A stretch of DNA of 63,431 nt, filler included, from Actinobacteria bacterium UBA7524 (GTDB taxonomy: Bacteria; Actinomycetota; Coriobacteriia; Anaerosomatales; UBA912), in NCBI GenBank assembly GCA_002478275.1. It is 3 parts of 3 records of this genome, joined end to end, with 100 filler letters (N's around TTAATTAATTAA, not from the genome) between each part and the next. Parts side by side here need not be neighbours in the genome. Positions count along the whole stretch, not along the records: positions 1 to 26,346 come from DLMY01000053.1; 2 more parts are not named here. One strand, 5' to 3'. Positions 5,773-34,488 of this stretch are shown here, piece after piece. Positions within the stretch are counted from its first letter, which is position 1. Every line of letters begins with the position of its first letter. The notes under the pieces are model-generated. The model worked only from the letters and a program-made list of their open reading frames with translations, did no database searches and had not been told where the DNA came from. Both the position numbers and the translations under genes were made by a program.

Positions 5773-5775
5773 TCT

Positions 5776-7155
5776 GTGGCCGTCAGCCGCGCATCGGCGA
5801 GACGCACTCTTGGCCAGACACTGAGGTCGCCGAGGTTGGCCGTTTGGCTGCTCGCCATCCTCATCGTGTACATGGCCGTCTCCACGATCGTCCCGCAGCG
5901 TTCCTATCGCGGAGAAGAGCTTTCGCAATGGGCAGAGCGCTACCCGGCTTTGGCTGCTGTCACTGGCTCACTGGGACTTCACGATGCTTACGTCAACATC
6001 TTCTTCCTTGCCTTGGTTGTTCTTCTCGCGGCCTCGACCGCGGCATGCGCATGGCAGCGCACGACCCGCGCAACGGGGATGCTGCGCCGACTCGGCACGA
6101 TCGACTCGGGGCGTGTCGGGTCGATCCGCTCTGCGCCTGTCGCGAGGATCCCCCTGACCGGCGAAGACGGGGGAGACACCGCCTATCGTGAAGCCGCTTC
6201 GGCTCTCAGGTCGCTCGGGCTCAGTGTCCGCACGGGCCCTCTTGTCACGGAAGCGTCCTCAGGGGCACTCGGTCTCCTCGGCAGTCCTGTGTTCCATTGG
6301 GCGCTCGTAGGTCTGATGCTTGCTATACCGGCAGGTCAGCTGGTCCGTGCGGAGGGACAGATCGGTATCGTGACCGGATACGAGAAAGCTGACGTCGCCG
6401 AGGAATACGGTGTCCTCGAGAGAGGCTTGTTCCACGGTGAGCTGAGTGGTCTGGTCATCGGTGTCGAGCCGGAAATGCCGCTGGAGTACATCGATGGCGG
6501 GGTCGACCGGGGGGCGGCTCCCGAGGTGTATCTGCGCGACGGAGAGAGTGTCGTGGCGCGCGGCCGGGTGTACCCGAACAAGCCGCTCAGGTACGGCGCG
6601 ATGACGATCCACATGTCCGAACACGGGCTGGGCGCCGTCGTATCGCTGGTGACCTCCGAGACGGCCGAGGAGAGCCAGTATCTGATAGACCGGGATGCAT
6701 CGTCACCGACCGGATGGGGCAAGGGCGTCCAGGGGCTGTACGATGAGGCCGGCCGGGAGCTGGCCGAGATCTCTGTCGAGCCCGATCCCGAGAGTACCGG
6801 GCGTGCCGTGGTGGAGATCGACCGGCCCGGCGAGCAGACGCTTCGCTCCTCCAGCCTGGGAGTGGGTGACACCGTCGAGCTGATGGATGGGGCGTCGCTG
6901 AGGGTGGAGTACCTGGGTTCGTACGCGAGGCTCTCGGTGGTGGAGGATCCTTCGGTCCCGGTCGTCTATCTGCTGCTCACCATCGCCTGTATCGCGGCGG
7001 CCGTCTCAGTGCTCGTTCCGTATCGGACCGTTTGGCTCGTGCGTGACGAGGTCGACGGGGAGCCGGTCGTTGCGGTCTCGATCAGGCACAGCAGGGGAGA
7101 GCGGTCGTTCCGCGAGCGGGTGCTGGAAGTCCTCGCCGGACAGGAGGAGCAGTGA
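5776..7155 (+). CDS. resB: Cytochrome c biogenesis protein ResB/CcsB (System II)
   Basis: N-terminal TMs (STIVPQ, ACAWQR), conserved FHWAL, large extracytoplasmic domain with VYPNKPLRY, DPSVPVVY; coupled to ccsA. Confidence 0.85.
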   Translation: MAVSRASARRTLGQTLRSPRLAVWLLAILIVYMAVSTIVPQRSYRGEELSQWAERYPALAAVTGSLGLHDAYVNIFFLALVVLLAASTAACAWQRTTRATGMLRRLGTIDSGRVGSIRSAPVARIPLTGEDGGDTAYREAASALRSLGLSVRTGPLVTEASSGALGLLGSPVFHWALVGLMLAIPAGQLVRAEGQIGIVTGYEKADVAEEYGVLERGLFHGELSGLVIGVEPEMPLEYIDGGVDRGAAPEVYLRDGESVVARGRVYPNKPLRYGAMTIHMSEHGLGAVVSLVTSETAEESQYLIDRDASSPTGWGKGVQGLYDEAGRELAEISVEPDPESTGRAVVEIDRPGEQTLRSSSLGVGDTVELMDGASLRVEYLGSYARLSVVEDPSVPVVYLLLTIACIAAAVSVLVPYRTVWLVRDEVDGEPVVAVSIRHSRGERSFRERVLEVLAGQEEQ

Positions 7156-7982
7156 ACTGGGAGATCATCTCGATGTGGGCGGCTGTGACGATGTATGCAG
7201 CCTCAGCGGTGCTGTTCGTTGTCGGTCTGGCTTTCAGCAGACCTCGTCTGGTCATGCTCGCCACGTGGCTCGCCCTTGCGGGTCTGATGCCTCACGCCGT
7301 AGGCATCGGCATTCGATGGGTCCGAGTGGGCCACGGTCCTTACCTCGGCTTCTATGAGGTCGTCTCGTCGTATGCCTTCATGGCGGTGGCAGGGTTCGCG
7401 CTGCTGGTGTGGCGTCGCAAGAATCTGGCCGCCGCGGGAGTCGTGCTCATGCCCGTTGCGTTCATCACCCTGGGCGCGGCCATGTTCACTCCGAAAGCGG
7501 AACTGGAGATCACCGGCACCCTTGCCAGCTGGTGGCTCAACCTGCACGTTGTCTTCGCGAAACTCTCATACGGGGCATTCATCGTGGCGTTCGCACTTGC
7601 GGCAGTCTACCTGTTCAGGGACCGGGCGAGTGGCATGTTGTCGGAGGTTCTGGCCAAGCTGCCTTCCCAGGTGACACTCGATGACCTGCAGTCGCGATTC
7701 GTGGGCGTCGGCTTCGTCTTCCTCGGCATAATGATCGTGACCGGGGCCATCTGGGCGGACCAGGCGTGGGGCCGGTACTGGGGATGGGACCCGATCGAGA
7801 CCTGGTCACTGGTCTCGTGGGTGGTCTACGCGCTCTACCTTCACGCGCGGCTTACGCTCGGATGGAGGGGGCGCCGCTCGGCCTGGTTCGCCCTGTTCGC
7901 GCTGCCGGTGGTCCTGTTCGCTCTCATCGGGGTGCCGCTGGTGTACAGCTCGATTCACGGAGCCTACCTGATAGGGTACTGA
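7152..7982 (+). CDS. ccsA: Cytochrome c biogenesis protein CcsA/ResC (System II heme lyase)
   Basis: WWD motif GAIWADQAWGRYWGWDPIETWS, YLHAR, terminal HG. Confidence 0.95.
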   Translation: MNWEIISMWAAVTMYAASAVLFVVGLAFSRPRLVMLATWLALAGLMPHAVGIGIRWVRVGHGPYLGFYEVVSSYAFMAVAGFALLVWRRKNLAAAGVVLMPVAFITLGAAMFTPKAELEITGTLASWWLNLHVVFAKLSYGAFIVAFALAAVYLFRDRASGMLSEVLAKLPSQVTLDDLQSRFVGVGFVFLGIMIVTGAIWADQAWGRYWGWDPIETWSLVSWVVYALYLHARLTLGWRGRRSAWFALFALPVVLFALIGVPLVYSSIHGAYLIGY

Positions 7983-8135
7983 CGGGGCGGTTTGAGTCGC
8001 GAAAAGCGCTGGTTTTCGTGCTTAAGTCTCGTTCAAACGGGCAGCTCGGCATGGTAGACTGTCTATGACGCTCCCGTGTGCGTCTATGAAGCATGCGAAA
8101 CGAAGCTGCTGAGCCTGGCAGCACCGGGAGGATTG

Positions 8136-9611
8136 TTGAACGACCCGGAGGTCGTCGTAGACGACATCGAAGCCATCCAGAATACTCCGGAGGCCGAACA
8201 GGACGGGCATGGATCGCGGCGGTGGCTTGTTGCCCTGCTGCTGATTCTTCTCCTTCTGTGTGGCGTCACTTCCGCTGTGGACACCCTGGTGAATCGCGGC
8301 CCGGACCAGGCCCGCTTCATCACGCGTAACCTCGAATGTCTGCAGTGTCACACAGAAGTCATCCCCGATCTGACCCGCGCTTCGGTGCACAACCCGTTCA
8401 TGCTGAAAGAGTGCCTCGTCTGCCACACCGAGCACGGGCAGGAGATCGAGCGCTCCGTGTTCTCGGGCGGCTCTCGAAGCGTCCAGCGGCTGCGCACGCT
8501 GGTCGAGTGGCTTCCGCTCAAGTGGATCCTCGCGGCCTACGACAGTGTGACCGGAGTGGAGCGGACCGAAGAGGGCGGGCGACTCAAGAGCGTGACCGTG
8601 CGCAGGGTCGCAGGTGCTGAGTCGCAGCTGATCGCGCCGATCGACGAGCTTTGCTGGATATGCCATGGAAGCATGGGCGCTCAGACCGCGCTGCCTTACC
8701 CGCACAGCCCGTTCGAGCGCGGTTACTGCATCACGTGCCACAAGCCGCATGCCTCAGACCACCGCGCGCTGCTGCTTCAGGACGAGCGCGAGCTGTGCGT
8801 CACGTGCCATCCGATCGGCCCGGAGCTGGCGCGCGAGCAGGTTCACCCCCCCGCGGGTAACCGGTACTGCACCAACTGCCACGACCCGCACGCGTCCGAG
8901 TGGAAAGGCATCCTGGTCAGCCGCCAGCGGGACCTGTGCTTCATGTGCCATCCGACGGTAGCGCCGCTCAGTAACAAGGCCGTCCAGCATCAGCCCTTCG
9001 AGTACGACAACTGCACGGGATGCCACGAGCCTCACGGCTCGGACTTCCGCCCGCTGCTCATCAAGGACCAGCCGCCGCTGTGTTACGACTGCCATCCCTC
9101 TATCGCCACGGAGTTCAGGCGAGCGAGCATTCACCCTGTCGGTACACTGCAGCTCAACTGCGCTGACTGTCATAACCCGCATGCAGCCGATTACTCGGCA
9201 CTGCTCATCGCACGGGACAACGGGCTGTGCTACGAGTGCCATACGCAGGCGATCAAGGTGCGCTACGAAGCGTCGGCCCACAACCGGACTTTGTGCCTGG
9301 CATGTCACACGCCGCATGGGTCGGCGTACCGTCCGATACTGCGCGGAGCCAACCCGGACCTGTGTCTGAGATGCCACAACCCCGCGTACTACGACGAAGC
9401 ATCTTCCGTCGTGTACCGCAACAACCATCCGGTACGACCGATCAGCTGGGACGTGAACGCTGGCAAGCCGTTGACGTGTACGTCTTCTTGTCACGATCCG
9501 CACGGGACGCGGTACACGTTCATGTTGAGATATACGAACTCGCCGTTCGACGCGAACTGCTTGATCTGCCACGCGGTCACACCTGGGAAGCGGGTAGGTG
9601 TAGACTTCTGA
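8136..9611 (+). CDS. Membrane-anchored multiheme cytochrome c (14 CxxCH + 1 CxxxCH; doubled-CxxCH repeat type); start uncertain
   Basis: One TM helix; repeating HxP..CxxCHxPH..LCxxCH units; CTSSCH near the C-terminus; GGGAGG before the TTG. Confidence 0.9.
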   Translation: MNDPEVVVDDIEAIQNTPEAEQDGHGSRRWLVALLLILLLLCGVTSAVDTLVNRGPDQARFITRNLECLQCHTEVIPDLTRASVHNPFMLKECLVCHTEHGQEIERSVFSGGSRSVQRLRTLVEWLPLKWILAAYDSVTGVERTEEGGRLKSVTVRRVAGAESQLIAPIDELCWICHGSMGAQTALPYPHSPFERGYCITCHKPHASDHRALLLQDERELCVTCHPIGPELAREQVHPPAGNRYCTNCHDPHASEWKGILVSRQRDLCFMCHPTVAPLSNKAVQHQPFEYDNCTGCHEPHGSDFRPLLIKDQPPLCYDCHPSIATEFRRASIHPVGTLQLNCADCHNPHAADYSALLIARDNGLCYECHTQAIKVRYEASAHNRTLCLACHTPHGSAYRPILRGANPDLCLRCHNPAYYDEASSVVYRNNHPVRPISWDVNAGKPLTCTSSCHDPHGTRYTFMLRYTNSPFDANCLICHAVTPGKRVGVDF

Positions 9612-9679
9612 CCCGAGGACCCTTGCCCCTGCGGTGAGGGTCTGTACGCCGAGATATCCCGAGAGGAAGATACCGAGTC

Positions 9680-10891
9680 ATGCCGCGCATATCGTTCGAT
9701 GGATTCAAGGACCCTGCCAGAAGGCCTCGCTTCGTCCTTTGGACCGGCACCGCAGTGCTGGGGTTGGTCGTGTTCGTCGTGGTGGCATTCGGGGTCACGT
9801 CCACGAAGTGGTTCTGCGCCGAGGTGTGTCACAACGTGCAGGCCGACACGATCACATCGCACGCCCGGTCTTCGCATTCGAACGTTTCGTGCATGGCATG
9901 TCATTCGCCGGTCAACGCCGATCCGATCACCTTCGCTTTCGGCAAGGCCAAGAAGCTGGGTGAGCTCTATCTGACCGCCACGGGCAACTATCACATCCCA
10001 CTGAACGCGACATCGCACTATGCGCTGACAGTGCCCGAGAAGCAGTGTACCCAGTGTCATTCGGCCAACAGACTGCCGACGCCTAGTATCGGCATCATCA
10101 TCGACCACGATATCCACTCTGAGAACGACGTGACGTGCACGATGTGTCACAACCGAGTAGCACATATCGAGGACTTCGAGTTGACGCTCACGGACCCCAA
10201 GACCGGAGAGCCGAGCTACAAGCACGATGACTGGATGCTGATGACCGCGTGTTTCCGTTGTCACAGCCACGATGACGACCCCAAGGCGCCCGGAGCTTGC
10301 GAAGCATGTCACCCGGCGGATTTCGAACTCAAGCCCGCGAATCACTTCGAGGAAGGCTTCTATCCCGCAGGACATGCGGAGATGGCACTCGCAGAGGTTG
10401 AGCGTGCCGCTGCCGCCGCAGCTGCGGCCGAGGAGCACGCGTCAGCGGCACGGAGCGCACGGTGGGCGGCCGGAGGGTCCGCGTATCTCCTTGGCATACA
10501 GCAGGCGCATGCTGCGGGCGGGGCCTCTGACAACCCGTGGGCGGAGTCCATCCCGAGCGTGGCTGAGATCAACTACTGCTCGACATGTCACGCCGAGAAG
10601 TTCTGCTCCGACTGTCACGGGCTGCCTATGCCGCACCCGGCGGACTTCCAGGAAGGGCACGGAGACTTGGGACGCAACGAGCCGGCGGTGTGTGCGACGT
10701 GCCACGCGAAGGGCGATGCGACAGGCACGCAGTTCTGCAACGCGTGCCATCACCCGGACGGCGATCCCACACTGCCGTGGATTCCTCAGCACTTCAATGC
10801 GGTCAAGGAGACCGGTGCCCAGGCGTGCTTCGATTGCCACGCACCCACGTTCTGCGCCGAGTGTCACGTGTCCACTTCACTAGGCCGGTGA
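9680..10891 (+). CDS. NapC/NirT-like membrane-anchored multiheme cytochrome c (11 CxxCH + 1 CxxxCH)
   Basis: TM helix followed by TSTKWFCAEVCH and SSHSNVSCMACH (NapC/NirT-like start), then further CxxCH motifs. Confidence 0.88.
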   Translation: MPRISFDGFKDPARRPRFVLWTGTAVLGLVVFVVVAFGVTSTKWFCAEVCHNVQADTITSHARSSHSNVSCMACHSPVNADPITFAFGKAKKLGELYLTATGNYHIPLNATSHYALTVPEKQCTQCHSANRLPTPSIGIIIDHDIHSENDVTCTMCHNRVAHIEDFELTLTDPKTGEPSYKHDDWMLMTACFRCHSHDDDPKAPGACEACHPADFELKPANHFEEGFYPAGHAEMALAEVERAAAAAAAAEEHASAARSARWAAGGSAYLLGIQQAHAAGGASDNPWAESIPSVAEINYCSTCHAEKFCSDCHGLPMPHPADFQEGHGDLGRNEPAVCATCHAKGDATGTQFCNACHHPDGDPTLPWIPQHFNAVKETGAQACFDCHAPTFCAECHVSTSLGR

Positions 10892-10904
10892 GCGGGCGAG
10901 CCGG

Positions 10905-11966
10905 ATGGGTGTGACGGACACTCCCCGCGGCGTACGGCCCCGTACGCTGTGGACCGCTATCGGCGTGATACTCGTGTGCGCGGCGCTTGCGTTCGCGTTA
11001 TGGTACCTCTCACAGCGCCGCAGCGGCCCGGCAGGTGTGGACTATAGACGCTTTCAGCCGGACTCCGTGGCAACGGTCTCGTTCGCGGGGCAGTTCCCGG
11101 ATGACGGGCGCCGGCTGCTCGAACGTCCTCTCGGTATCGACGGGGATGGCGATCGGCTGTATGTGGCACTCGCTGACTCTGGCACGATCGCTGTGTTCCG
11201 CTATGACGGGTCTGAGCTGGCGACACTCGTCGTCCCGCCCGCCGAAGGGGCTCCGGTCGCATATCCGGTGGACCTGCGCATCGATGACGACGGGTCGTTG
11301 CTGGTCGTGGATACCTCCGGACAGCGCGTCGTGAGGATGGATGCGCGGGACGGCAACGAACTCGCGGTACTCGGCGCACCGGCTGACGACGGTGCCGTCG
11401 GAGGTAGGGGCAGCTCTGCAAGCGGGCGCTCGGAGGGTACGCTCATCCAGCCCACAGCGATCGAGGTGCACGAGGGCACGGTCTTCGTGGCTGACGCGGG
11501 CGACTCGACAGTGAAGGTCTACGATTCTGGCGGGGAATTGGTCGGGGCCATCGGAGCGGGCATCGAACCTCCGTTGACGTTCGTGAGCGGGATGCGGGTC
11601 ATCGACGGAGTATTGTGGGTCTCGGACGCCAACGCAGGCAGAGCGATCGCGCTCGACCCGGGGAGCGGCTCGATGCAGGGTTCACTTCAGCGTCGCCTCG
11701 ACTTGCCCCGAGGAATCGCCGCCGACAGCGCTGGGCGGATCTTCGTGGTCGAGACGTTCGGCCGAGTCGTTCGGGTGTTCAGCCCCGAGGGCGATCGTGT
11801 GGTCGACGTGGTGGGAGATGCAGGCACCGAGGGCTACACTCGTGGAGGAGCCCTGAATTCTCCCGAGAAGGTTCTTTACGATGAGCGAAGCAACAGACTC
11901 TACGTGACCGATAGCGCTGCAGGCCGAGTGAAGGTCTACAACATCCGCAAGGAGGACGATCAGTGA
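10905..11966 (+). CDS. Membrane-anchored NHL-repeat beta-propeller protein
   Basis: TM helix; LERPLGI, LIQPTAI..VFVADAG, LDLPRGIAADSAGRIFV repeats. Confidence 0.85.
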   Translation: MGVTDTPRGVRPRTLWTAIGVILVCAALAFALWYLSQRRSGPAGVDYRRFQPDSVATVSFAGQFPDDGRRLLERPLGIDGDGDRLYVALADSGTIAVFRYDGSELATLVVPPAEGAPVAYPVDLRIDDDGSLLVVDTSGQRVVRMDARDGNELAVLGAPADDGAVGGRGSSASGRSEGTLIQPTAIEVHEGTVFVADAGDSTVKVYDSGGELVGAIGAGIEPPLTFVSGMRVIDGVLWVSDANAGRAIALDPGSGSMQGSLQRRLDLPRGIAADSAGRIFVVETFGRVVRVFSPEGDRVVDVVGDAGTEGYTRGGALNSPEKVLYDERSNRLYVTDSAAGRVKVYNIRKEDDQ

Positions 11967-12403
11967 AGCCACTATCGGCGCTCGGACTGCTGTTGACCGC
12001 AGCCTTCCTGGCCGTACTGGCGGCAGGGTGCTCCGAACCCGCCGCCCGTCAGCTGGATCCGCCTGCCGCATCGATCCAGGAGCTGCTCGAGCTTCGTGCT
12101 GAGCGATCGACGGACGCCTCGGCCTATGCTGAGTACTTCGCCTCCGTCGAAGTCGCCCAGGCGCTCGCGGAGTCCGCTGTCGAGGAGACCCAGGGTCCGC
12201 TCATACCCGAATGGGATGCGCCCTATGTCTCGCAGGAGGAGTCCGCCAGCGCAGATGTGGTCGTCGTGTGGCGCGATCTGGAGGACTGGCCGGACTGGCC
12301 TGTGGCGACGGTGTTTCGGATGACACTGCTTGACGACCGATGGGTCGCGGTCGATGCGACGGGCGTCGAAGGTACAGCCACCCCTCCGCCGCCGCGTGAG
12401 TGA
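11963..12403 (+). CDS. Putative lipoprotein
   Basis: Lipobox LAAGC; GTGA overlap with the upstream gene. Confidence 0.7.
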   Translation: MKPLSALGLLLTAAFLAVLAAGCSEPAARQLDPPAASIQELLELRAERSTDASAYAEYFASVEVAQALAESAVEETQGPLIPEWDAPYVSQEESASADVVVVWRDLEDWPDWPVATVFRMTLLDDRWVAVDATGVEGTATPPPPRE

Positions 12404-12603
12404 AGCCGTCTGTCACTGCGGTTGAGCCACCCATCCCTGAACGGGAATTAATGTCATCGCTGCTGTTTGTCACTCCGTGAACGAAGTATACTTGGGTTCA
12501 TAGAATGCCCGATTCCCAGCCTCTGTCGTGGAGTGTTCTGCAAGGGGATAGCGGGTACATCGCTTATACGACGGGTTTCGCGATCGAGCGAAGGAGCGCG
12601 AAG

Positions 12604-13266
12604 GTGACCGATTTCGCGAAAGTGCCTGAGGCGTCTATCTATAGGCTTGCCCTCTATCATTGCTTCGTGGGGGAGATGGTGCGCACCGGCGTGACCGGAC
12701 GCATCACGTCTCGTCAGATAGCCGAGGACCTGGGCATCAAGGAGGAGACAGTCAGGCGTGACCTGTCCTATATCGGCGGCGTCGGCCGCCCGGGCGCGGG
12801 TTACGAAGCAGGAGTGTTGTTCGACGCGCTCACGATCTTCCTGGGTCTGCACGACGATTACCCGATCGTCAAAGTGGGCACAGCGCAGATGCTTTCCGCC
12901 TTGCAGGTGGTCTTTCCCGCGCACGCTTATGGCGTGCGCCCGGCCGCGTACTACTCGGAGCTTCCAGAAGACGTCGGCAAAGTCGTCGACGATATCGAGA
13001 TCAAGCACATCACCGAGTTGCCGAAGATCGATCCTTCGCTGGGTGCCACGGTTGCGCTCGTGGCCTGTTCGCCGGGTTGGGTGCAGGTGATCATCGACAT
13101 GCTCTACGAGGGGGGCATTCGTGGCGTATTGCTGTTGACGCCGGCCATCCGTCTGGACAAACCGGAAGGTATGTACATCAACCAGGTGCGCATGCCGTGC
13201 GACATCAAGTCGTTGGCCTGCCGGTGTCAGGTGGTCCAGGGGTCCGTGGTGGAGTCCGGGGTCTAG
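12604..13266 (+). CDS. Divergent Rex-family transcriptional regulator
   Basis: VPEASIYRLALY...ITSRQIAEDLGIKEETVRRDLSYIGGVGRPGAGY Rex DNA-binding domain; C-domain lacks GxGxxG; AAGGAG RBS before GTG 12604. Confidence 0.8.
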   Translation: MTDFAKVPEASIYRLALYHCFVGEMVRTGVTGRITSRQIAEDLGIKEETVRRDLSYIGGVGRPGAGYEAGVLFDALTIFLGLHDDYPIVKVGTAQMLSALQVVFPAHAYGVRPAAYYSELPEDVGKVVDDIEIKHITELPKIDPSLGATVALVACSPGWVQVIIDMLYEGGIRGVLLLTPAIRLDKPEGMYINQVRMPCDIKSLACRCQVVQGSVVESGV

Positions 13267-13270
13267 CTCG

Positions 13271-13852
13271 CTATTCGGGCTTGAGCCAGAACCACTGCTC
13301 GAATACGTCTGCGGCGAGCTGCTCATCCGATTCCCAGCCGGACCCGGGGGACAGCGCGATAACGAGTACTTCCTTGCCCGAGGTCCGCACCAGGTGATAG
13401 GCGCCTGAGAACTCGGCTCCTTCGGAGTCCACCCCTTCGACCCCGATACGAGTTCCGGGTCGTCCGCCTATGGTGACTTCTTCGGGGTCGCTGGTTTCGT
13501 ACGACTCCCACTCGCGGTTCTCGGCCCTCAGGGCGATGATGTCGGTGACGCGGTCTTCGACCGGTGTCGACGTGTCTTCAGGCGTGCCGGAATACACAAG
13601 GATGGAAAGTGATTCGAGAGAGCCGCTTTCCGGCAACTCCTTCGCTGCATAGACAGCGATGAGGTCGGCGGTGACGTTGCTTTGCCATGAGCCCGGTACC
13701 TTGAAGTGGAACAGGCCACTGGGGTCAGTGACCGTCTTGGGCTGTTCTTGCTCGAAGAACGAGCACCCAGAGGCAAGGGAAAGAAGGAGGCCGAGGGCAC
13801 AAAGAGCGGCGATCGCCGCAACGGTACGAGGTCGTGAGAGGTGTCGCGTCAT
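13271..13852 (-). CDS. Putative lipoprotein (PsbP/DcrB-like)
   Basis: Lipobox LASGC; FHFKVPGSW, VTIGGRPG. Confidence 0.7.
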   Translation of the reverse strand: MTRHLSRPRTVAAIAALCALGLLLSLASGCSFFEQEQPKTVTDPSGLFHFKVPGSWQSNVTADLIAVYAAKELPESGSLESLSILVYSGTPEDTSTPVEDRVTDIIALRAENREWESYETSDPEEVTIGGRPGTRIGVEGVDSEGAEFSGAYHLVRTSGKEVLVIALSPGSGWESDEQLAADVFEQWFWLKPE

Positions 13853-13920
13853 CGGTCCTCCATACGGTATTGTTCAGTGACGAAGTGTCGTTTGTGGCAG
13901 GAAGTGCGACGTTCCGGCAT

Positions 13921-13949
13921 TTGACTGTGTCATGGTAGCAGAGTACGCT
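13921..13949 (+). promoter_or_regulatory. Putative sigma70-type promoter
   Basis: TTGACT-N17-TACGCT just upstream of the 13963 cytochrome. Confidence 0.45.
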
Positions 13950-13962
13950 CCCAGAGATAGAT

Positions 13963-14982
13963 ATGCAAATCACTAACTCCCCGCCCCAGGTCTCAAAGCC
14001 ACAGGTGAAGCGCACGCGCGTGCCTCAGCGAGCCTTCGCTGTTGTCGCGATGTCCCTCGTAGTCCTTGGCGTGCTGCTGCTCTCTGCGGGCGCTGCCGTT
14101 CGTGTCGTGGACTGCAGGTTATGCCACACTATGCGCCCGTACGTCGAGGCGCACGCGGACTCCGGTCACGCCGGTCTTGAGTGTGCCGACTGCCATGCGA
14201 ACCGTTCGTTCACGGGACTGTTGACTGACGGAGTCAGGGCTGCCAGATGGGTAGCGTTTGAGCCGTTCGTTCTCGAACCGCCGGTCGCCATGGGTTCGGA
14301 TGCGCGCTGTCGCGGATGCCATGCAGAAGTCCTCGAGCAGGTGATCGTCAGGTCGGTGAGGGTCCGGCATGCCGACTTCGCCGAGGAATCATGCGCGACC
14401 TGCCATAGCGGGAGCGCGCATGAGGTCGACACCAGACGTTACGTCGGTTCTCAGATGGACGACTGCATGTCATGCCACAGGGCGAGCATCCAGACCCCGG
14501 GAACCTGCGAGACCTGTCACCCCCCTGAGACCCAGAAGGGCAGACGCGACAGGCCCACCGCGTGGAGGGCAAGTCACGGGCCGGGATGGGAAAGCGCACA
14601 CGGCATGGGCGAGCTCACCGGATGTCCGGCGTGTCACACGCCGCCTATGTGCGCGAAGTGTCATGGCATGCCACTGCCTCACCCGCCGACGTGGTCCCGG
14701 GTGCACGGACGTGAACTCAGATCCGCTGACCGGGAGAAGTGCTACACGTGCCACGATTCAGAATGGTGTGCCAGCTGCCACGGGGTGGATATGCCGCACC
14801 AAGAGGGCTTCCTGCGCGTGCACGGACCTGAGGCGAAGGACAAGGAGCGGGTCTGCACCAAGTGCCATTCGGTCCAGAACTGCGATGCGTGCCATGCTGC
14901 TTCGGGACACCAGGAATACCATACGGTCGGGCAGAGTCCTGTCGGCCAGGGTGACGTCGGCGGTGATACCGATGCTCGATGA
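13963..14982 (+). CDS. Membrane-anchored dodecaheme cytochrome c
   Basis: N-terminal hydrophobic segment; 12 CxxCH; HGxxMPH repeats shared with the 9680 protein. Confidence 0.88.
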   Translation: MQITNSPPQVSKPQVKRTRVPQRAFAVVAMSLVVLGVLLLSAGAAVRVVDCRLCHTMRPYVEAHADSGHAGLECADCHANRSFTGLLTDGVRAARWVAFEPFVLEPPVAMGSDARCRGCHAEVLEQVIVRSVRVRHADFAEESCATCHSGSAHEVDTRRYVGSQMDDCMSCHRASIQTPGTCETCHPPETQKGRRDRPTAWRASHGPGWESAHGMGELTGCPACHTPPMCAKCHGMPLPHPPTWSRVHGRELRSADREKCYTCHDSEWCASCHGVDMPHQEGFLRVHGPEAKDKERVCTKCHSVQNCDACHAASGHQEYHTVGQSPVGQGDVGGDTDAR

Positions 14983-16105
14983 GCGGATCGCCGAGTTCCT
15001 GATGCGGATGCGTGCCGGGTTCGAGAGCCTGGCTGCTCAGATACCGCGGATACTGGCTGATCCGCGCGCCTATCAGCGTGAGTCGATGATGCTGGCCCTG
15101 GCGGCTGTGCTGTTGGTGCTCATGGTCGTCTTCATCCTCTATGCGCTCTACGATGCGATCGATACGTGGCGCACGCGCAGGCGGATGGGACTTTCGGTCA
15201 AGCGCAGGAACCGCTTCGTTCGCCTGGCGCCTCCGTTCGTGGTCCTGGTAGCCGCCGTCTTCCTGCTCGCTATCGCACCGCTGGTGCCGGCCACGGGCGC
15301 GGCGTGCGGTACGTGCCATGCGGTCAGCGAAGCGGTGGCGCGCTGGGAGTCGGGTAGCCACTCGGAGACGTCGTGTTACGGGTGTCATGCGGCCCCGGGG
15401 GTCAGTGGCGCACTCGCTGCCTCGTTCGCGGGCGTGCGCAACATAGGCAGAGCTTCCTCGGACGGTGCGGTCCGCTCAGGCGTCAACGACGCAGGTTGTC
15501 TGCAGTGTCACGTCTCGGTCCGCTCCGGGATCGTCGAGGGTGCGGTGAGGATGCGGCACTCGGATGTGATCGAGGCTCGCATGCAGTGCACGTCGTGTCA
15601 TTCGCGAGTGGGGCACGCCGAGAGCCAGGACGCGGGTCTTGGAGACCAGCGCATGACGCGGCATATCATGTCGATATGCCTGACATGCCACGACGGGGTC
15701 ACGGCTCGCTCCGACTGTGACATCTGTCATGACGGGCGTCCGCTCGATAGGGCGACGACCGTGAGTGGCGGCGTCACTCCTGTGCAAGTCGGCTGCAAGG
15801 GGTGTCATACCTCGACCACCGAGAGGGTCTGCGTGGATTGCCACGGACTCGAGTTGCCGCACCCGCCGGTGTTCATGCGGCGGCACGCGGCGATGTCCTC
15901 GGATGACCCCGGTCTGTGCGCGCGGTGTCACTCGGGCGCTTCGTCGAGGCTTATCTGTGCTTGCCACACCGAGACGAATGTACACGGTTCGTACAGTGTG
16001 TGGTTCCCTGTCCATGGACCGGCCGCAAGTTCGACAGGACCCGGAGGCTGCAACTGTCACCGCGGCGCGTTCTGCGGGAAGTGCCACGACAGACCACCGT
16101 TCTGA
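14972..16105 (+). CDS. Two-TM multiheme cytochrome c (10 CxxCH + 2 CxCH)
   Basis: Start MLDERIAEF overlapping the upstream stop; two TM helices; 10 CxxCH plus ICACH and GCNCH. Confidence 0.87.
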   Translation: MLDERIAEFLMRMRAGFESLAAQIPRILADPRAYQRESMMLALAAVLLVLMVVFILYALYDAIDTWRTRRRMGLSVKRRNRFVRLAPPFVVLVAAVFLLAIAPLVPATGAACGTCHAVSEAVARWESGSHSETSCYGCHAAPGVSGALAASFAGVRNIGRASSDGAVRSGVNDAGCLQCHVSVRSGIVEGAVRMRHSDVIEARMQCTSCHSRVGHAESQDAGLGDQRMTRHIMSICLTCHDGVTARSDCDICHDGRPLDRATTVSGGVTPVQVGCKGCHTSTTERVCVDCHGLELPHPPVFMRRHAAMSSDDPGLCARCHSGASSRLICACHTETNVHGSYSVWFPVHGPAASSTGPGGCNCHRGAFCGKCHDRPPF

Positions 16106-16261: not shown

Positions 16262-16975
16262 GTGAGTCCTGAAGTGCCCAAGGTGAAAGCGCCTAAGGTC
16301 AAAAGGGTCAAGACCACCACAAGCAAGGCGGTCTACGTATTGCTCGGGCTGATCGTCGTACTCCTCGGCGTCGTACTCGTCATGCTGTTCGGCAGCCCGT
16401 TGTTCGACACTCAGCCGCGTACCGACCTTGAGCGCGACTACCAGCAGCTGGTACAAGGTCTCAGGGACAACCCGGACAATCCCGCCATCCTCATGACGCT
16501 TGCCGAGGTCGAGTACCTGATGGGCAAGAAGGCCGACGCGTTCGATCACGCGGCCCGGGCCGCCGAGGTCGCCACTTCGAGTGCCGGCATCCCGATGCGC
16601 TATTCGCAGTTGCTGCTCCAGGAGGAGCGTTACGACGAAGCACTCGAATGGATAGACAAGGACATCGAGCTTCGCGAAGAGCATAAGTCCGCAGAGCCGA
16701 AATTCATCAAGTCGCAGATACTGTGGGCGACAGGCGAGCGCGAAGAGGCGATCGACCTCCTCGGCAGGGCTCTTGAGATCGGGTACGTCGCCGCCGACAT
16801 GCGCATCATCTACGCCGAGTGGCTTGCCGAGGAAGGGCGCGACGAGGAAGCCATCGAGCAGTACCGGCGCGCGTTACGGATGCTACCCGGTGATGAACGG
16901 GCGATAAAGGGGCTCGAGGCGCTCGGCGAGACGTACGAGGAGACCGACACGGTCGATCCGCACAGCGCGCCGTAG
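16262..16975 (+). CDS. Membrane-anchored tetratricopeptide repeat protein
   Basis: GAGGTG RBS; TM helix; TPR-like helices. Confidence 0.8.
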   Translation: MSPEVPKVKAPKVKRVKTTTSKAVYVLLGLIVVLLGVVLVMLFGSPLFDTQPRTDLERDYQQLVQGLRDNPDNPAILMTLAEVEYLMGKKADAFDHAARAAEVATSSAGIPMRYSQLLLQEERYDEALEWIDKDIELREEHKSAEPKFIKSQILWATGEREEAIDLLGRALEIGYVAADMRIIYAEWLAEEGRDEEAIEQYRRALRMLPGDERAIKGLEALGETYEETDTVDPHSAP

Positions 16976-17024: not shown

Positions 17025-18530
17025 ATGAACAACAGCAAGCGCCTGTGGATCGTCGCGGCCATCGTCTTGCTTCTGCTGCTGGCTCTAGCCGCGTTCTTCT
17101 TCTGGCTGACCGGCGGTCAGGACCGCTCGGGAGAGAACGTGCCCGGGCGCGAGGAGGGCCTGATACACGTCAAGAGCATCTACGTGTTCGACACCAACCG
17201 TAACCTGGTCAAGCCGGTCGGTATCGGTGCGGACCGTAACGGCAACTTCTTCGTGACCCTGCGTGACTCTGCCGTAGTCGTCCAGTTCGACCGTAACGGC
17301 AACTACGTCAGCCATTTCGGAGAGCGTGGGCTTGCCGTGGGCAACATGATGGTCCCGCTCGGCACCGCAGTCGATTCGCTGGCCGGACACGTCTACGTGG
17401 TGGACCGCTCCCGCTTCAGACTGATCTGCTTCAGCACCCAGGGTGAGTACCTGTGGGAGGTCACGCTGCTCAATCCACTCAACGTCGTCGTCGGTCCGGA
17501 CGGGGATGTCTACGTCCTGACCTTCGGGCCGATAGTGCATCTGACCGCCCAGGGCGAGCTCGTGCAGGAAGTGGGGTCGCGCGGGTTCTCCGAAGGCCAG
17601 TTCGACTTCCCGAGAGGAGCGGTGGCGCTTGCCGATGATGAGCTGATCATCGCTGACACCAACAACACGCGATTGCAGCGCGTCAAGCTGTCCGGTGAAC
17701 TCACTGCCACAGTCGAATGGGTAGAGGGAACCCCTCCGCGCTTCCAGGACGACCCCAACACGCGGTTCGGCCTGCCGACGGGTGTGGCGGTCGACGGGCG
17801 AGGACGCATCGTCGTGATGGACGGATTCCGCCACACACTCGAGATGCTCGATCCCGAGACCCGCGAGGTACTCACCGACTTCGGCGGCGAACGTGAAGGC
17901 AACTCGGCCGGTATGTTCAACCTGCCGACGGGCATCGTGCGCCTCTACGGCGACACCTACGCCGTGACCGACACGTTCAACGACCGCGTTCAGATCATCC
18001 GCCTGATCGCTCCGGGTGACCGTAACCCGCTCACGCTCTATCCGTGGCTCAAGTGGCTGCTCCCGCTGCTTCTGCTCCCGCTGCTCCTGCTGTTCGGGCG
18101 CAAGCGCATCTTCGTCACCGAAGAGACGCTCGAACGTGCCCTCGACGAAGGCAAGGCACGCCTCGTGATCGGCGTGTATCGCAAGCTCCATGCGCTTCCC
18201 GAGGTGGTCGATCGATTCGCAGACACTATGGAAGTCGACGTGCGGATGGGCGACTTCCTGGTACCCGTCCAGATCGCCGAGGAGACCTCTGGGGACGTCG
18301 AGCCGGATGCCGCCGCGCCCGAGACCACGTCTGCCGAGGAGATGCTCGCCCGTGCGGCGGAGCGCAGCAGGATAGAGCGCTTGCTGCTCAGGCGTCATCT
18401 GATCGTATGCGCCGACCCTGCTCAGTGCACGCGGGTCGAGGAACTTAAGGGCAAGCCGGTTTCTTACGAGGAGCTGCTGGAGGAGTACGCCATTGCTGAG
18501 GAAGCTGCGGAGGCGCCTGCTCAGGAGTAG
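17025..18530 (+). CDS. NHL-repeat beta-propeller protein with two TM helices and a cytoplasmic C-terminal domain
   Basis: AAGGAG RBS; FDFPRG, FGLPTGVAVD, FNLPTGI repeats; second TM WLLPLLLLPLLLLF. Confidence 0.85.
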   Translation: MNNSKRLWIVAAIVLLLLLALAAFFFWLTGGQDRSGENVPGREEGLIHVKSIYVFDTNRNLVKPVGIGADRNGNFFVTLRDSAVVVQFDRNGNYVSHFGERGLAVGNMMVPLGTAVDSLAGHVYVVDRSRFRLICFSTQGEYLWEVTLLNPLNVVVGPDGDVYVLTFGPIVHLTAQGELVQEVGSRGFSEGQFDFPRGAVALADDELIIADTNNTRLQRVKLSGELTATVEWVEGTPPRFQDDPNTRFGLPTGVAVDGRGRIVVMDGFRHTLEMLDPETREVLTDFGGEREGNSAGMFNLPTGIVRLYGDTYAVTDTFNDRVQIIRLIAPGDRNPLTLYPWLKWLLPLLLLPLLLLFGRKRIFVTEETLERALDEGKARLVIGVYRKLHALPEVVDRFADTMEVDVRMGDFLVPVQIAEETSGDVEPDAAAPETTSAEEMLARAAERSRIERLLLRRHLIVCADPAQCTRVEELKGKPVSYEELLEEYAIAEEAAEAPAQE

Positions 18531-18850: not shown

Positions 18851-20710
18851 GTGAAGAAGATCCTCGTGCTGGTCGTCTTGGCGACCGCGCTGATCGCAAT
18901 CACCGCAGCTCCCGCTATCGCTGAGGGTTACAACGAGTCCGGTGAATACACAAGGGCGAACGGGTACTTCTCGGGTCCTCACGGCGGCTACCAGACGACC
19001 ACGAACAAGTGTGCAGTCTGCCACTCGACCCACTATGCGACGGGCAGCTTCATGTTGTTGAGGGCGAACTCCCGCGAGGCCGCATGTGACTACTGCCACG
19101 GCGGCGGCGGCGGTTCGACCATCAACATCCAGATGGACAACGAGTACAAGGACATGTCCGATCCGACCACCCAGACCACGGGTATCGCAGAATTCGATGG
19201 CGGCTCTGGACTCGGAACGGGCCACACGCTCGGTTACGACGGTCTTGCGCCGGCTGACATCAAGCCCGCGTACGAGACCGGCGGCTTCGCATGCTTCGAC
19301 TGTCACAGCCCGCATGGCAACTCCGCCCGGATCATCGGCGTCATGGCCAACCCGGGTCGCGCGGTGGGCACCGACAACGTCGTCATCCCCATGAATCAGC
19401 CGCCGTATATCGGCAACTCGGTTGATGGTATCGTGAACAGCTCCGCTGAGTGGGGTATCGACCCCGTGTTCGGCAACTTCAAGTGGTTCGGCGATCCCTG
19501 GTCAACCAATCCTGCCGCTCGTCCCGCTGACGACATCGCAGGGGGCCGACTGATATACCGCCCGATCTATCCTGCGGGACGCTTCATGCTTCTGAAGGAC
19601 CCGCACAGCACGGCGAAGGAGGGTCAGCCTGACACGGCTACCCCGATCAGCGTCTACGGCGACGTGACCGCGCTTGCGACAGACGGCCTGAACAAGTTCG
19701 CCATCAACTGGGACGAGCCAATGGGTCCCGCTGACGGCGGATACGGTGGTGGCCAGGACAACGACAACGACAACGCGTTCCTGTTCGCTCCTGCCTCTGG
19801 CACGAGTCCGGACGGTACGGGTGGGTTCGGTTCTCTGTCTGAGTTCTGCACGGACTGTCACGACGGCACAGCCGGCGCTTCGACTCAGCCGGCCGAGGTC
19901 TATCACAGCACCGAGGGCACGTACACGATCGCGTACTCCCACGATGCTCAGCCTCGCCATTGAGCACGTCAGATGCCTCTCGGTACCGATGAGGATGGAA
20001 CTGACGACAACGAAGGCCCGCACTGCCGCAACTGCCACACCGGCGCGAATGATTGCTTCACGTGCCACACCAACGACGACCGCTTCCAGCCTGCAGCGTT
20101 CTCTGCGGCCGGTGTAGCGACGCGTGTCGATGTGTCCTCGGCTTACACCGCCGTGACCGACGCGCAGGTCGGCAACCGCAGCAACTGGACACCTCAGGCC
20201 TCTTACCGCCAGAGTGCGGTGGCTGGCTCAGCGATCTCCGATCCTTGCCTCGACGGAGGCTTCAGCTTCCCGCACCGCACCCTTGGCTACAACATGCTCA
20301 AGGACGAGCTGTGGGGTGTTGACTTCGACGGCCAGGCGATCGCTGCAGGTGTCGCTCGTACGGCGAACGGCAACACGCTCGACATGATGTCGGGTGTTGC
20401 AACGTCGACCGGTACTCCGCGTCCGGCTGACGCCAAGCAGGCGTACGTGACGTCTGACTGGTACTACTACGTCGAGACCCGCAACGACACCTCGATCATC
20501 CCTGCAGTCCAGGGTGACAACGGTGCGTTGGTCGGTCAGGCGGCCGAGAACCTCGACTCCGTCTGTATCGACTGCCACGGTGACGCTACGTACTGGAACG
20601 GCGACGACGATTCCCTGTACGTGGACAAGGCCGGCAAGGCTGTCCCGTACGGCACCTATGGCCATGGTGACACCTTCGGGTGGGAGCTCCTGCTCAAGGG
20701 CCTGCCGTAG
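18851..20710 (+). CDS. Secreted heptaheme OmcS-like cytochrome c, predicted selenoprotein (Sec at TGA 19961-19963; 619 aa from GTG 18851, alternative ATG 18809)
   Basis: The two ORFs are in the same frame, separated by one TGA that aligns with Cys of the paralog (HDAQPRH*AR vs HDSQSRGCAR); SECIS-like hairpin follows; 7 CxxCH; signal peptide MKKILVL...AIA. Confidence 0.85.
19967..20006 (+). promoter_or_regulatory. Bacterial SECIS-like hairpin
   Basis: CGTCAG/CTGACG lower stem, CCTC/GAGG and TCG/CGA upper stems with a bulged U; apical loop GUAC begins 20 nt after the UGA. Confidence 0.75.
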
Positions 20711-20754: not shown

Positions 20755-20793
20755 AGAAGGGTCCCGGGTCGATCCCGGGGCCCTTCTGTGTTT
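20755..20793 (+). terminator. Intrinsic terminator
   Basis: AGAAGGGTCCCGGG-TCGAT-CCCGGGGCCCTTCT followed by GTGTTT. Confidence 0.7.
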
Positions 20794-23570: not shown

Positions 23571-25349
23571 ATGTCCCGAGTGGACCTTGTTCTGCTGCAT
23601 GCTCCGAGCGTCTATGACTTCCGCGAGCGATCGATCATGTTCGGCCCGGTGTCAGACATGGTGCCGTCCACCCCGGCGTTCGAGATGTACCCGCTCGGCT
23701 TCACGACGATGGCCGAGTACATGGAGCGTTGCGGACTGAAGGTGCGTATCGTCAACCTCGCCGTTCTGATGCTCAACCGCAAGGGTTTCGATGTCGAGGC
23801 GGCGATACGTGACATGAACCCCGTCGCGTTCGGCATCGACCTGCACTGGCTTCCTCACGCGCACGGCTCGATCGAGATCGCACGTATTGTCAAGAAGTAT
23901 CATCCTGAGACGCCGGTGATCTTCGGAGGGCTGTCCTCGACTTACTTCCACGAGCAACTGGTCGAATACCCCTGGGTGGACTACGTAGTGCGGGGTGACT
24001 CGACGGAGAAGCCCATCACCCAGCTCATGTACGCGCTTAAGCACAACGGCAATCTGGGGGGCATCCCCAATCTCACTTACAAGACACGCGAAGGTTCAGT
24101 CGTGGTCAACCCGCTCGAGTGGGTGCCCGATGACATGAACGACATCTCGCTCGACTACTCGTTCTCCATGAAGTCGGTGATCCGGTACCGAGATATGGCG
24201 AGCTCGGTGCCATTCCACGACTGGCTACAGTACCCCGTGTGCGCGTCTTTGACGTGCAGGGGCTGCACCCACAACTGCGCGACGTGCGGCGGCAGTGCGT
24301 ATTCGTTCCGCACGCACTTCGGTCGCAAGAAGGTCGCCTTCCGCGACCCGGAGCTGCTTGTCCGAGATATCGCGCACGTGCAGAAGTACATCCCGGGCCC
24401 GATCTTCGTACTCAACGACTTCCTGCAGGGTGGACGCGACTACGTCGCCGCGTTCATCCGTGGACTCTCGCGCATCAAGCTGCGCAACCCCATCGGCTTC
24501 GAGTTCTTCAAACCACCTGCCGAGGAGTTCTATCAGTTCCTGAACGAACACCTGCCCGACTACTCGGTCGAGATCAGCGCGGAGTCGCACGACGATGACG
24601 TCAGGGCGGCGTTCGGTAAGCACCACTACACGACCGCTCAGCTCGAAGAGTCCATCGCTGCCGCGCTGCGGAACGGTTGCTCGCGTTTCGACCTGTACTT
24701 CATGACCGGTATCCCGAAACAGACCGCAGCTTCAGTCCTCGAGACGGGCGCCTACATCGAGTCACTCTACGAGAAGGTAGGCAACGACAAGCGGCTGCTC
24801 GCGTTCTCCTCGCCCATGGCGCCTTTCCTCGACCCGGGCTCGATGGTCTTCGACGATCCGGCGAAGTACGGCTACACACTGCGCGCCAAGACGCTCGAGG
24901 AGCACCGTCAGCTGCTGGTGCAGCCCTCGTGGAAGCACATCATGAACTACGAGAGCGCCGCGATGAGCCGCGACGAGATGGTCGATGCGACGTATGAGGT
25001 CGGTCTGCAGCTCAATCGCCTCAAGGGACGCCTGGGCATCGTCGAGCCTGATGTGGTGGCGCGTACCGAGGAGCGCATCCACGAGGCACGCGTGGCCATG
25101 CAGCGCATCGACGAGATCATGGGCCTGGGGCCGGTCGAGAGGGACAGCGCACTGGGGGCACTCAAGTCCGAGTTCGAGCGCTTGTCTGAGTCCACCGTGT
25201 GCGAGAAGACCGAGCTCAACTGGCCTGCGAGAGCTACCGTGCGCCACGTCTGGAACGTGTTTCTGTTGTGGGCGACCGAGAATCTCGCTAACCTGTTGGG
25301 GCTGCGGCGGCCCGTGCCGCAACCCGTAGTTGAGTATTCGGAGGCCTGA
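23571..25349 (+). CDS. B12-binding domain/radical SAM protein (resembles the TIGR04190/Ta0216 family)
   Basis: DLVLLHAPSVYDFR, FEMYPLGF, FGIDLHWLPHAHG; CTHNCATC [4Fe-4S] motif. Confidence 0.85.
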   Translation: MSRVDLVLLHAPSVYDFRERSIMFGPVSDMVPSTPAFEMYPLGFTTMAEYMERCGLKVRIVNLAVLMLNRKGFDVEAAIRDMNPVAFGIDLHWLPHAHGSIEIARIVKKYHPETPVIFGGLSSTYFHEQLVEYPWVDYVVRGDSTEKPITQLMYALKHNGNLGGIPNLTYKTREGSVVVNPLEWVPDDMNDISLDYSFSMKSVIRYRDMASSVPFHDWLQYPVCASLTCRGCTHNCATCGGSAYSFRTHFGRKKVAFRDPELLVRDIAHVQKYIPGPIFVLNDFLQGGRDYVAAFIRGLSRIKLRNPIGFEFFKPPAEEFYQFLNEHLPDYSVEISAESHDDDVRAAFGKHHYTTAQLEESIAAALRNGCSRFDLYFMTGIPKQTAASVLETGAYIESLYEKVGNDKRLLAFSSPMAPFLDPGSMVFDDPAKYGYTLRAKTLEEHRQLLVQPSWKHIMNYESAAMSRDEMVDATYEVGLQLNRLKGRLGIVEPDVVARTEERIHEARVAMQRIDEIMGLGPVERDSALGALKSEFERLSESTVCEKTELNWPARATVRHVWNVFLLWATENLANLLGLRRPVPQPVVEYSEA

Positions 25350-26092
25350 TGAGCGAGGACAGCGCCGGGGACGGCCGGACACCGGCCCCCGGCGAAGCGA
25401 CGACCGACCGCGTGCGCGGCATATTCGGTCGCATCGCTGGCAGCTACGACGCCTTCAACCTTCTTTCGAGCATGGGTCTGGACCGGCTCTGGCGCCGCGC
25501 TGCGGTACGCGCCGCACATCTGAAGCCGGGCGCACGCGTGTTGGACCTATGCGCGGGCACGGGCGACCTGGCGTTCGCGCTTGCGGCGACCGGTGTCGCG
25601 AGCGCGGTCGTGGCCACCGATTTCGCTCCCGAGATGCTCGAGGTCGCCAGGCGCAAGGCGGCACGCTTCTCCGGCCCCACCGAGGTCACCTTCTCTGTGG
25701 CCGACGCGCAGTCACTGCCGTTCGACGACGAGAGCTTCGACGTCGTGACTGTGGCGTTCGGGGTACGCAACCTGCCCGACCGTGACGCGAACTTCGCAGA
25801 GGTCTTCCGGGTCCTCAAGCCCGGCGGACGCTATGTGGTCCTCGAGTTCTCTCGTCCGCCGTTCGCGCCCTGGCGAGCCTTGTATCACGTCTACCTGCGC
25901 TCGGTCATCCCGATCCTGGGTTCCATGCTCAGTGGGGGCGACCGGGCTTCCTTCCAGTATCTCAATGACTCCATCCGCCGCTTCCCGGACCAGGCGAAGC
26001 TCGCAGCCGAACTCAGGGCGGCAGGATTCACCGCCATCGGTTGGACGAACCACACCGGCGGCATCGTCGCCATCCACACTGCGGTAAGATAG
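25349..26092 (+). CDS. menG: UbiE/MenG demethylmenaquinone methyltransferase
   Basis: FGRIAGSYDAFNLLSSMGLDRLWR, VLDLCAGTGD, VAFGVRN, VLKPGG..LEFS; TGATG overlap. Confidence 0.9.
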   Translation: MSEDSAGDGRTPAPGEATTDRVRGIFGRIAGSYDAFNLLSSMGLDRLWRRAAVRAAHLKPGARVLDLCAGTGDLAFALAATGVASAVVATDFAPEMLEVARRKAARFSGPTEVTFSVADAQSLPFDDESFDVVTVAFGVRNLPDRDANFAEVFRVLKPGGRYVVLEFSRPPFAPWRALYHVYLRSVIPILGSMLSGGDRASFQYLNDSIRRFPDQAKLAAELRAAGFTAIGWTNHTGGIVAIHTAVR

Positions 26093-32965: not shown

Positions 32966-33298
32966 GCCGTCGATGGGGATGAGTACGTGTGCCCAGTAGG
33001 ACCAGCAGAGAGCCGGGGTAGCTGAGAACCGGTGTCCGAAGAGCCGCGGAACATGGCCCCGGAGGTCTCCGGAGGAAACGCGCAAGCGGAGTAATGCCGG
33101 ACGGTCGCCCCCGTTACCATGGGCTATAGGAGCATAGACGCCGGCGGGTAAACCCCACCACCCCGCGTTCTTTCGATCGGCGTCGAGTGCTTGAGAGGTT
33201 CCGGAGATACATTCCCGGGATGAAGTCGGGTGGTACCGCGGAAGGCGCATGCGCTTCTCGCCCTGACACCGTACGTGTCGGGTGGGGAGCGTTTTTCT
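32966..33298 (+). ncRNA. T-box riboswitch, Met-specific, transcriptional type
   Basis: AGTA, AGAGAG bulge, GCTGAGA distal loop, specifier GAAC-ATG-G (33053-55), CCGTTA, T-box GGGTGGTACCGCG (33228-40), terminator 33252-33298 ending TTTTTCT. Confidence 0.9.
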
Positions 33299-33314
33299 AT
33301 TGGAGGTGAGTGTC

Positions 33315-34487: not shown

Positions 34488-34488
34488 C

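Follow-up and report, generated by a model that had tools for sequence, protein, structure and literature searches.

A probable selenocysteine-containing seven-haem cytochrome in a Gram-positive bacterium of the Coriobacteriia

In 63,431 nucleotides of DNA from Actinobacteria bacterium UBA7524 (hereafter the window, along the whole length of which positions are counted), the stretch 18851-20710 is very probably a single gene for a secreted seven-haem cytochrome, in which the in-frame UGA at 19961-63 is decoded as selenocysteine (Sec). This reading, which a preliminary description had proposed from the sequence alone, is favoured because the UGA and the frame on both sides of it are conserved among homologues, the hairpin that follows the UGA co-varies, homologues exist with Cys at the Sec position and the Sec machinery is present in relatives. 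Judged by its sequence, the window gene represents a new family of multihaem cytochromes with putative Sec, for which both the phylum and the cell type are new. A literature search of limited coverage found no description of a Sec cytochrome in Coriobacteriia, and the passages on cytochromes and multihaem proteins in a 2026 selenoproteome review name other families, not this one (PMC13188914).

In databases the gene stands as a four-haem protein cut short and an orphan fragment, so that models of electron transfer and counts of haem for the widespread subsurface Coriobacteriia would be off by three haems and one selenium. A Sec cytochrome in a Gram-positive lineage, unrelated to the MccSep of Geobacter, would also point to more than one origin of selenium-haem chemistry, and the protein is a concrete candidate for the terminal reductase of these bacteria.

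One reading frame with a conserved UGA

The stretch is one open frame whose sole interruption is the TGA at 19961-63, and it is shared, as had been noticed at the outset, by the two annotated open reading frames (ORFs), that is, ORF 18800/18851..19963, which ends in this TGA, and ORF 19973..20710. Translated through the TGA, it gives a product of 619 residues (to which all codon numbers refer) reading ...YSHDAQPRH-U-ARQMPLG..., with seven CxxCH haem-binding motifs: four before the TGA (residues 54, 79, 148 and 333) and three after it (residues 392, 402 and 572), so that the translation bears out the earlier statement that both halves are intact. By direct reading, an AGGAGG Shine-Dalgarno sequence (18837-42) lies 8 nt ahead of the GTG start. 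The layout of the signal peptide is the same in every full-length homologue aligned, and the product, predicted to leave the cell by the general secretory pathway, would have about 595 residues after cleavage and carry seven c-type haems. No promoter-like or terminator-like site was found between the two halves of the cytochrome, and no second convincing TGA-bridged gene was found in the rest of the window. The codon itself is kept in two independently assembled contigs: one from Logan at depth 22, belonging to run X1 and possibly to the source sample, has 0 differences over 19500-20299, and one of run X4, which is about 90% identical, leaves 19961-63 unchanged.

Of 120 protein homologues listed (42-100% identity, the N-terminal half of the window protein included), 84 end exactly at ...SHDxQPRH, while the other 36 continue. 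DNA was fetched for 29 loci from species-representative genomes and 16 from metagenomes, which yielded 31 stop-type sites in 29 distinct contexts. At all 31 the stop is TGA, never TAA or TAG, it is preceded by His and it is followed in frame by ARQM, ARSM or ARTM. In each of the 29 sites that are not cut by a contig end, 179-249 open codons with three invariant haem motifs follow. The true terminators of these TGA-type genes, counted in the window and in loci L001-L025 and L059-L072, are TAA in 21 and TAG in 8 cases, and never TGA (n = 29), an avoidance that may be due to high expression or to selection for clean termination where UGA is also recoded.

The same break runs through the protein databases. 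In a 50%-identity library, N-terminal halves end at profile position 386 and C-terminal halves begin at 391-397, and a profile search of 1.84 billion representatives retrieved 60 proteins at E<=1e-30, many of which are halves cut at the Sec position. In NCBI records the N-terminal half, with 367-374 residues, goes under the name 'multiheme c-type cytochrome' or is called a 'hypothetical protein', which is the split annotation that had been predicted.

Where homologues do not have TGA, the Sec column usually holds Cys (in alignment A2, 28 of the 35 rows without Sec; the remaining 7 have Tyr, His or Arg). This includes the tandem paralogue found downstream in the window, whose YSHDSQSRG-C-ARAQ aligns to the Sec site without a gap, as had been reported. 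Comparison with relatives, also proposed at the outset, thus shows both TGA and Cys at this column and, as detailed below, compensatory changes in the hairpin. In two metagenome loci (L070:2413 and L074:762), which read ...QPRD-L-C-R..., Leu occupies the Sec column and Cys comes one residue later; by sequence, the reactive residue may have moved by one position there. One genome has, at L029:4001-5750, a TGA-type copy with several frame breaks beside an intact Cys-type copy, the broken copy being either a decaying gene or the product of long-read indel errors.

A hairpin that accompanies the UGA

A bacterial selenocysteine insertion sequence (SECIS), as sought by criteria of the bSECISearch type, is a hairpin just 3' of the UGA with a G in its apical loop at about 16-37 nt from the UGA. 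The hairpin pointed out in the preliminary description lies where it was placed and is the minimum-energy fold, with its loop G, which had been put at about 20 nt, at 22 nt from the U of UGA. At the matching place the Cys-type paralogue has no hairpin (0 kcal/mol in +12..+44), again as described.

Among relatives, an apical hairpin of 6-9 pairs is found in 20 of 20 TGA copies derived from genomes, starting +13 to +19 from the U of UGA. Its loop starts at +19 to +26 (at +28 in L006 and L007, as scored by best energy), a G is present in every listed loop, and 10 metagenome TGA copies agree. Two sequence classes can be told apart by the peptide that they overlie. The class over LNPGGS (CUGAACC-CGGGU-GGUUCAG) is 100% paired throughout its 7 sequences, and 5 of the 7 pairs show compensatory changes; none of 500 shuffles reaches its covariation score, and slid controls pair at no more than 49%. 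The class over PIGTDG (CCCAUCG-GNAC-CGAUGGG), to which the window belongs, has a bulged U in the window and in L002. Below the apical hairpin, the lower stem differs in sequence and keeps the same pairing, with CGUCAG/CUGACG in the window and L012 and CACGCC/GGCGUG in L002-L005 and L009; it is absent in L001, L006 and L007.

The seven non-Sec homologues, which are Cys, Tyr and Leu forms, provide a control: three have no hairpin at this place, three have a weak one and one, a Cys copy, has a stable one that is taken up below. The sharpest comparison comes from two nearly identical peptides, since MILSPGGTATN after TGA is encoded with a hairpin of -10.5 kcal/mol, equalled by just 1 of 100 synonymous recodings, whereas MILNPGGTATN after Leu has no hairpin. 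Under synonymous recoding, the minimum free energy (MFE) over 48 nt gives a mean z of -1.36 for Sec and -0.08 for non-Sec copies, with many single loci unremarkable; because this measure separated the two groups on average only, the apical hairpin was scored alone in its place. Rfam has no family at gathering score anywhere in the window, and only chance-level matches (E 1.5-8) around the hairpin. The family supplies 29 natural, putative SECIS variants together with matched non-Sec controls.

Selenocysteine machinery in relatives

All five of the relatives' genomes with the TGA form that were searched carry the Sec machinery, that is, tRNA-Sec (69-74 bits; anticodon TCA by ARAGORN), selA, selB and selD, mostly close together, from which the organism of the window is itself inferred to have it. 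In these relatives selD (L051-L055, G001-G005) is a selenoprotein gene too, with a TGA before AAKWGP and a hairpin that begins about 11-12 nt after the UGA, whose loops (CGGGC, CGGGU or GGC) resemble the CGGGU of the cytochrome. A survey of 300 genomes sampled from the class found the family in 24 at E<=1e-30, of which 21 had a match holding one internal TGA; selB was above the cut-off in 20 of these 21 genomes versus 203 of the 300 overall.

Points against Sec and competing explanations

Several results count against the decoding of this UGA as Sec. The fold of the window hairpin is energetically unexceptional (MFE -22.6 kcal/mol, z = -1.08; 28 of 200 shuffles fold as well) and its apical hairpin is equalled in 73 of 100 synonymous recodings; since the peptide alone nearly dictates the palindrome, the window hairpin is backed by its conservation and not by its own energy. 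Its class over PIGTDG is 82% paired in a gapless alignment, with a covariation score that 26 of 500 shuffles reach, and the Cys copy of L029 also has a hairpin, of -9.0 kcal/mol. As for the machinery, the 63 kb of the window hold no tRNA and no sel gene, hence none of selA, selB, selD and tRNA-Sec, one TGA-type genome (G263, a fragmented assembly) has no detected selB, and selB is common in the class (68%), which makes the co-occurrence test a weak one, if consistent.

Of the competing explanations, the one that survives best, although it is improbable, is that read-through of the UGA inserts a residue other than Sec, or Sec together with another residue: Trp or Cys by near-cognate decoding, or Cys via the Sec machinery when selenium is scarce. 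Sec is assigned here from sequence, and Cys works at this position in paralogues. However, the hairpin at the distance of a SECIS goes with TGA and is not retained elsewhere, and the Sec machinery is present in TGA-type genomes. If Cys were what the cell needed, a plain TGC would cost it less, and the lineages that changed to Cys lack the hairpin (with L029 as the one exception).

Slightly less probable again is that the TGA is a true, conserved stop, so that the gene would encode a secreted four-haem protein of 370 residues, with the downstream half translated separately from the ATG at 19973 or never. Gene callers and NCBI annotate it in this way, and TGA is the usual stop in this organism: it ends 32 of the 45 Pfam-supported genes of the window, TAA ending just 2, so that TGA is an ordinary stop here and the cytochrome's internal one is the only such TGA that is conserved. 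The ATG 12 nt past the TGA, whose Met is conserved, also speaks for a restart, but the same Met (in RQM) is found in full-length Cys and Tyr forms, and hence is not kept as a start, and direct reading reveals nothing like AGGAGG ahead of this ATG that could serve as a ribosome-binding site. The C-terminal half, inspected for a signal peptide, has none though it has three invariant CxxCH motifs, and therefore could not receive haem alone. Furthermore, all 31 sites preserve frame and phase from one side of the TGA to the other, Cys takes the exact place of the TGA in full-length homologues, and the hairpin co-varies.

A third explanation, that this organism has a pseudogene here or that faulty assembly created the TGA, is close to refuted, for while the L029 copy (at 5111) has a TGA followed by frame breaks, the depth-22 contig is identical to the window (if maybe from the same sample), and the same codon recurs in 29 distinct contexts with intact codons downstream wherever a contig end does not cut them.

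Decoding as Sec would proceed as follows: SelB carrying Sec-tRNA would bind the apical hairpin (19976-94) while the ribosome stands at the UGA, Sec would be inserted at position 371, and the C-terminal half, which has haem motifs and no signal peptide, could mature only as part of the exported full-length protein.

Family identity and likeness to known cytochromes

The protein belongs to no described family that could be detected. Pfam recognises no more than generic motifs of the doubled-CxxCH and c7 kinds (Paired_CXXCH_1 and Cytochrome_C7, both on the first motif pair), and NCBIfam has nothing above E 0.01 for the read-through protein. The ExtKL model NF040886 matches neither the Sec cytochrome (P0001) nor its paralogue (P0008) at E<=1, and at the same threshold the models for GSU2204 (NF041027) and octahaem tetrathionate reductase (TIGR04315) do not match P0001. 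No solved structure is matched by sequence or profile. In the ESM Atlas the natural Cys paralogue finds generic multihaem clusters only, with scores <=0.90. A first AlphaFold model, built with 51 alignment rows, was discarded (predicted local distance difference test score, pLDDT, 47.6); a second, built with 133 rows, reached a pLDDT of 62.5 and a predicted template modelling score of 0.68, and with it Foldseek found nothing in the PDB at E<=0.001, the top rows being unrelated.

The labels 'OmcS-like' and 'nanowire-type' in the preliminary description are unsupported in the form given. Searches with the protein, with its N-terminal domain and with the 51-row profile did not find OmcS at E<=10. 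Among 48,161 chains compared by VIA-align, OmcS (6ef8_A) was the only one at Z>=2, with a Z of 2.2 that is far below the level of a shared fold and comes from a middling model (root-mean-square deviation 5.0 Å, 182 residues aligned, 16% identity). Both are secreted multihaem cytochromes with very little regular secondary structure (PDB 6EF8), but OmcS has six haems and the window protein seven motifs.

A closer parallel, correctly named in the preliminary description as a Sec-containing multihaem cytochrome of Geobacter, is the published MccSep/ExtKL (GSU2937-2936, Geobacter sulfurreducens), which in the relevant passages of PMC13510729 is an exported multihaem c-type cytochrome with one in-frame UGA, a downstream hairpin and Cys relatives, and for a long time likewise appeared in annotations as two genes. 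In 2026 it was demonstrated that MccSep reduces polysulfide in a manner that depends on Sec, which it pairs with a Cys-ligated haem (PMC13510729). Each protein has a free Cys that is conserved: in MccSep it ligates the active-site haem (PMC13510729), and in the window protein it is the invariant Cys466. However, MccSep has five CxxCH motifs instead of seven (PMC13510729), its Sec sits in DG-U-P instead of RH-U-AR, and its hosts, according to the same passages, are mainly Desulfobacterota and Nitrospirota, unlike the Gram-positive Coriobacteriia of the window. The two proteins have no detectable sequence relation, with the limit that the PDB copy searched may not include 9WT8-9WTC. The words Actinomycetota, Coriobacteriia and Bacillota do not appear in one supplementary file of that paper (PMC13510729).

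In its passages on cytochromes, the 2026 selenoproteome review names three entries, ExtKL (NF040886), GSU2204 (NF041027) and TIGR04315, the last two of which, GSU2204 and the octahaem tetrathionate-reductase type, resemble the window protein in being c-type cytochromes with Sec (PMC13188914). Within the lineage itself, a multihaem cytochrome cluster with Rex and biogenesis genes has been described in Parvivirga hydrogeniphila (PMC9686372). Homologue names put the cultured Anaerosomatales Anaerosoma tenue and P. hydrogeniphila in the same lineage as the window, which carries Rex, ResB/CcsA and several multihaem genes in the manner of the P. hydrogeniphila cluster, and the multihaem passages of this Anaerosomatales description mention no in-frame UGA or selenoprotein cytochrome (PMC9686372).

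Possible role of Sec371

Three residues stand out in the 51-row alignment. His370, which precedes Sec, is invariant in Sec forms and elsewhere is usually Gly, with Ser, Asp or other residues in some rows. Cys466, the sole Cys outside the CxxCH motifs, is invariant in all 51 rows, even those in which the Sec column holds Tyr, His or Arg. Outside the motifs, only six His are invariant or nearly so (44, 61, 125, 155, 364 and 475) for seven haems. This would fit a haem, posited as a guess, that is open on its distal side or liganded there by something other than His and that has Sec371 beside it, an arrangement demonstrated in MccSep (PMC13510729).

There is about an even chance, judging from these conservation patterns, that Sec371 is a reactive residue beside a haem that works with His370 and the free Cys466, in which case the protein would be a terminal reductase and not a simple wire, much as MccSep. 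A Se-S redox pair formed by Sec371 and Cys466 is less likely, and Sec371 as an axial ligand of a haem a little less likely still. The second model is too uncertain at residues 361-381 and 455-488 to put Sec near a haem or to fix where Cys466 lies with respect to Sec371 and the haems.

More speculatively, the family might represent a second, independently evolved class of selenium-dependent multihaem enzymes outside the Gram-positive membrane, with His370-Sec371 and Cys466 forming a chalcogen active site on a c-type haem, a proposal that is doubtful as a whole. In its boldest version Sec would itself be the axial ligand of the haem, for which we know of no precedent in any natural c-type cytochrome. 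If there is such a chalcogen site, the protein would serve Anaerosomatales as a terminal reductase, with sulfur, selenium or metals as acceptors, instead of as a passive wire.

Paralogue, phylogeny and gene neighbourhood

A tree of 51 full-length sequences separates two groups with a support of 99. The first, a clade of longer paralogues that all have Cys, takes in the neighbour of the Sec cytochrome in the window; the other consists of 16 Sec forms with 4 Cys and 7 Tyr, His or Arg forms nested among them, and within it the window cytochrome falls in a 13-row all-Sec clade with a support of 100. The 'Cys paralog next door' of the preliminary description is therefore right in part: it adjoins the Sec gene and has Cys at the column, but it belongs to a separate, Cys-only clade and is absent from this place in most related loci. 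Homologue names place the family in Coriobacteriia and Anaerosomatales and, as far as its sequences have been seen, it appears to be confined to Coriobacteriia of the Anaerosomatales type.

The gene sits in a conserved set of envelope genes, whose order, multihaem cytochrome, TPR protein, NHL-repeat protein and Sec cytochrome (Table 1), recurs in most of the related loci with flanks that are long enough. In these loci the Sec cytochrome is usually followed directly by a B12-binding radical SAM gene and ubiE (23571-26092 in the window), a pair perhaps for quinone methylation, the Cys paralogue lying between the Sec cytochrome and the B12-radical-SAM gene only in the window and a few others. Upstream, at 1442-16105, Pfam identifies a regulator of the Rex type, ResB/CcsA for haem attachment by System II, proteins with NHL and TPR repeats and four more multihaem cytochromes.

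Table 1. Positions of the Sec cytochrome gene, its sequence elements and its neighbours in the window
Feature	Position	Strand	Details
Multihaem cytochrome	14369-16105	+	upstream neighbour (Pfam)
TPR protein	16262-16975	+	upstream neighbour (Pfam)
NHL-repeat protein	17025-18530	+	upstream neighbour (Pfam)
Terminator-like hairpin, upstream	18558-87		brackets the cytochrome unit
Promoter-like sites	18629-58 and 18679-707		upstream of the cytochrome gene
Seven-haem cytochrome gene, one unit	18851..20710	+	GTG start 18851, TAG stop 20708-10, putative Sec codon 371
Signal peptide MKKILVLVVLATALIAITAAPAIA	18851..18922	+	read from translation; predicted cleavage before conserved EGYN
Haem motif 1, CAVCH	19010-24	+	translation
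Haem motif 2, CDYCH	19085-99	+	translation
Haem motif 3, CFDCH	19292-306	+	translation
Haem motif 4, CTDCH	19847-61	+	translation
His370 codon CAT, then UGA 19961-63	19958..19963	+	31/31 stop-type sites
SECIS-like hairpin	19967..20006	+	lower stem 19967-72/20001-06; apical stem 19976-82/19987-94, U19990 bulged; loop GUAC 19983-86
Haem motif 5, CRNCH	20024-38	+	invariant in 51-row alignment
Haem motif 6, CFTCH	20054-68	+	invariant in 51-row alignment
Cys466 codon in CLDGGFSFPHRTLG	20246..20248	+	sole Cys outside CxxCH motifs
Haem motif 7, CIDCH	20564-78	+	invariant in 51-row alignment
Terminator-like hairpin, then T-rich tail	20766..20783	+	after TAG
Tandem Cys-type paralogue, 697 residues	21160..23253	+	Cys codon TGC 22660-62

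The C-terminus of the Sec cytochrome, GWELLLKGLP (20681-20707), matches no known motif. Its ...LLLKGLP is kept at the extreme end in nearly all Sec, Cys and Tyr forms, in whose alignment G617 and L618 are invariant, and this conservation suggests that it could be a sorting, anchoring or assembly signal. Elsewhere in the window, at 33282-38964, lies a methionine and one-carbon block with a HcyBio sulfur-insertion enzyme, a NIL-ferredoxin, a MetH-like methyltransferase and a two-part methylenetetrahydrofolate reductase (MTHFR).

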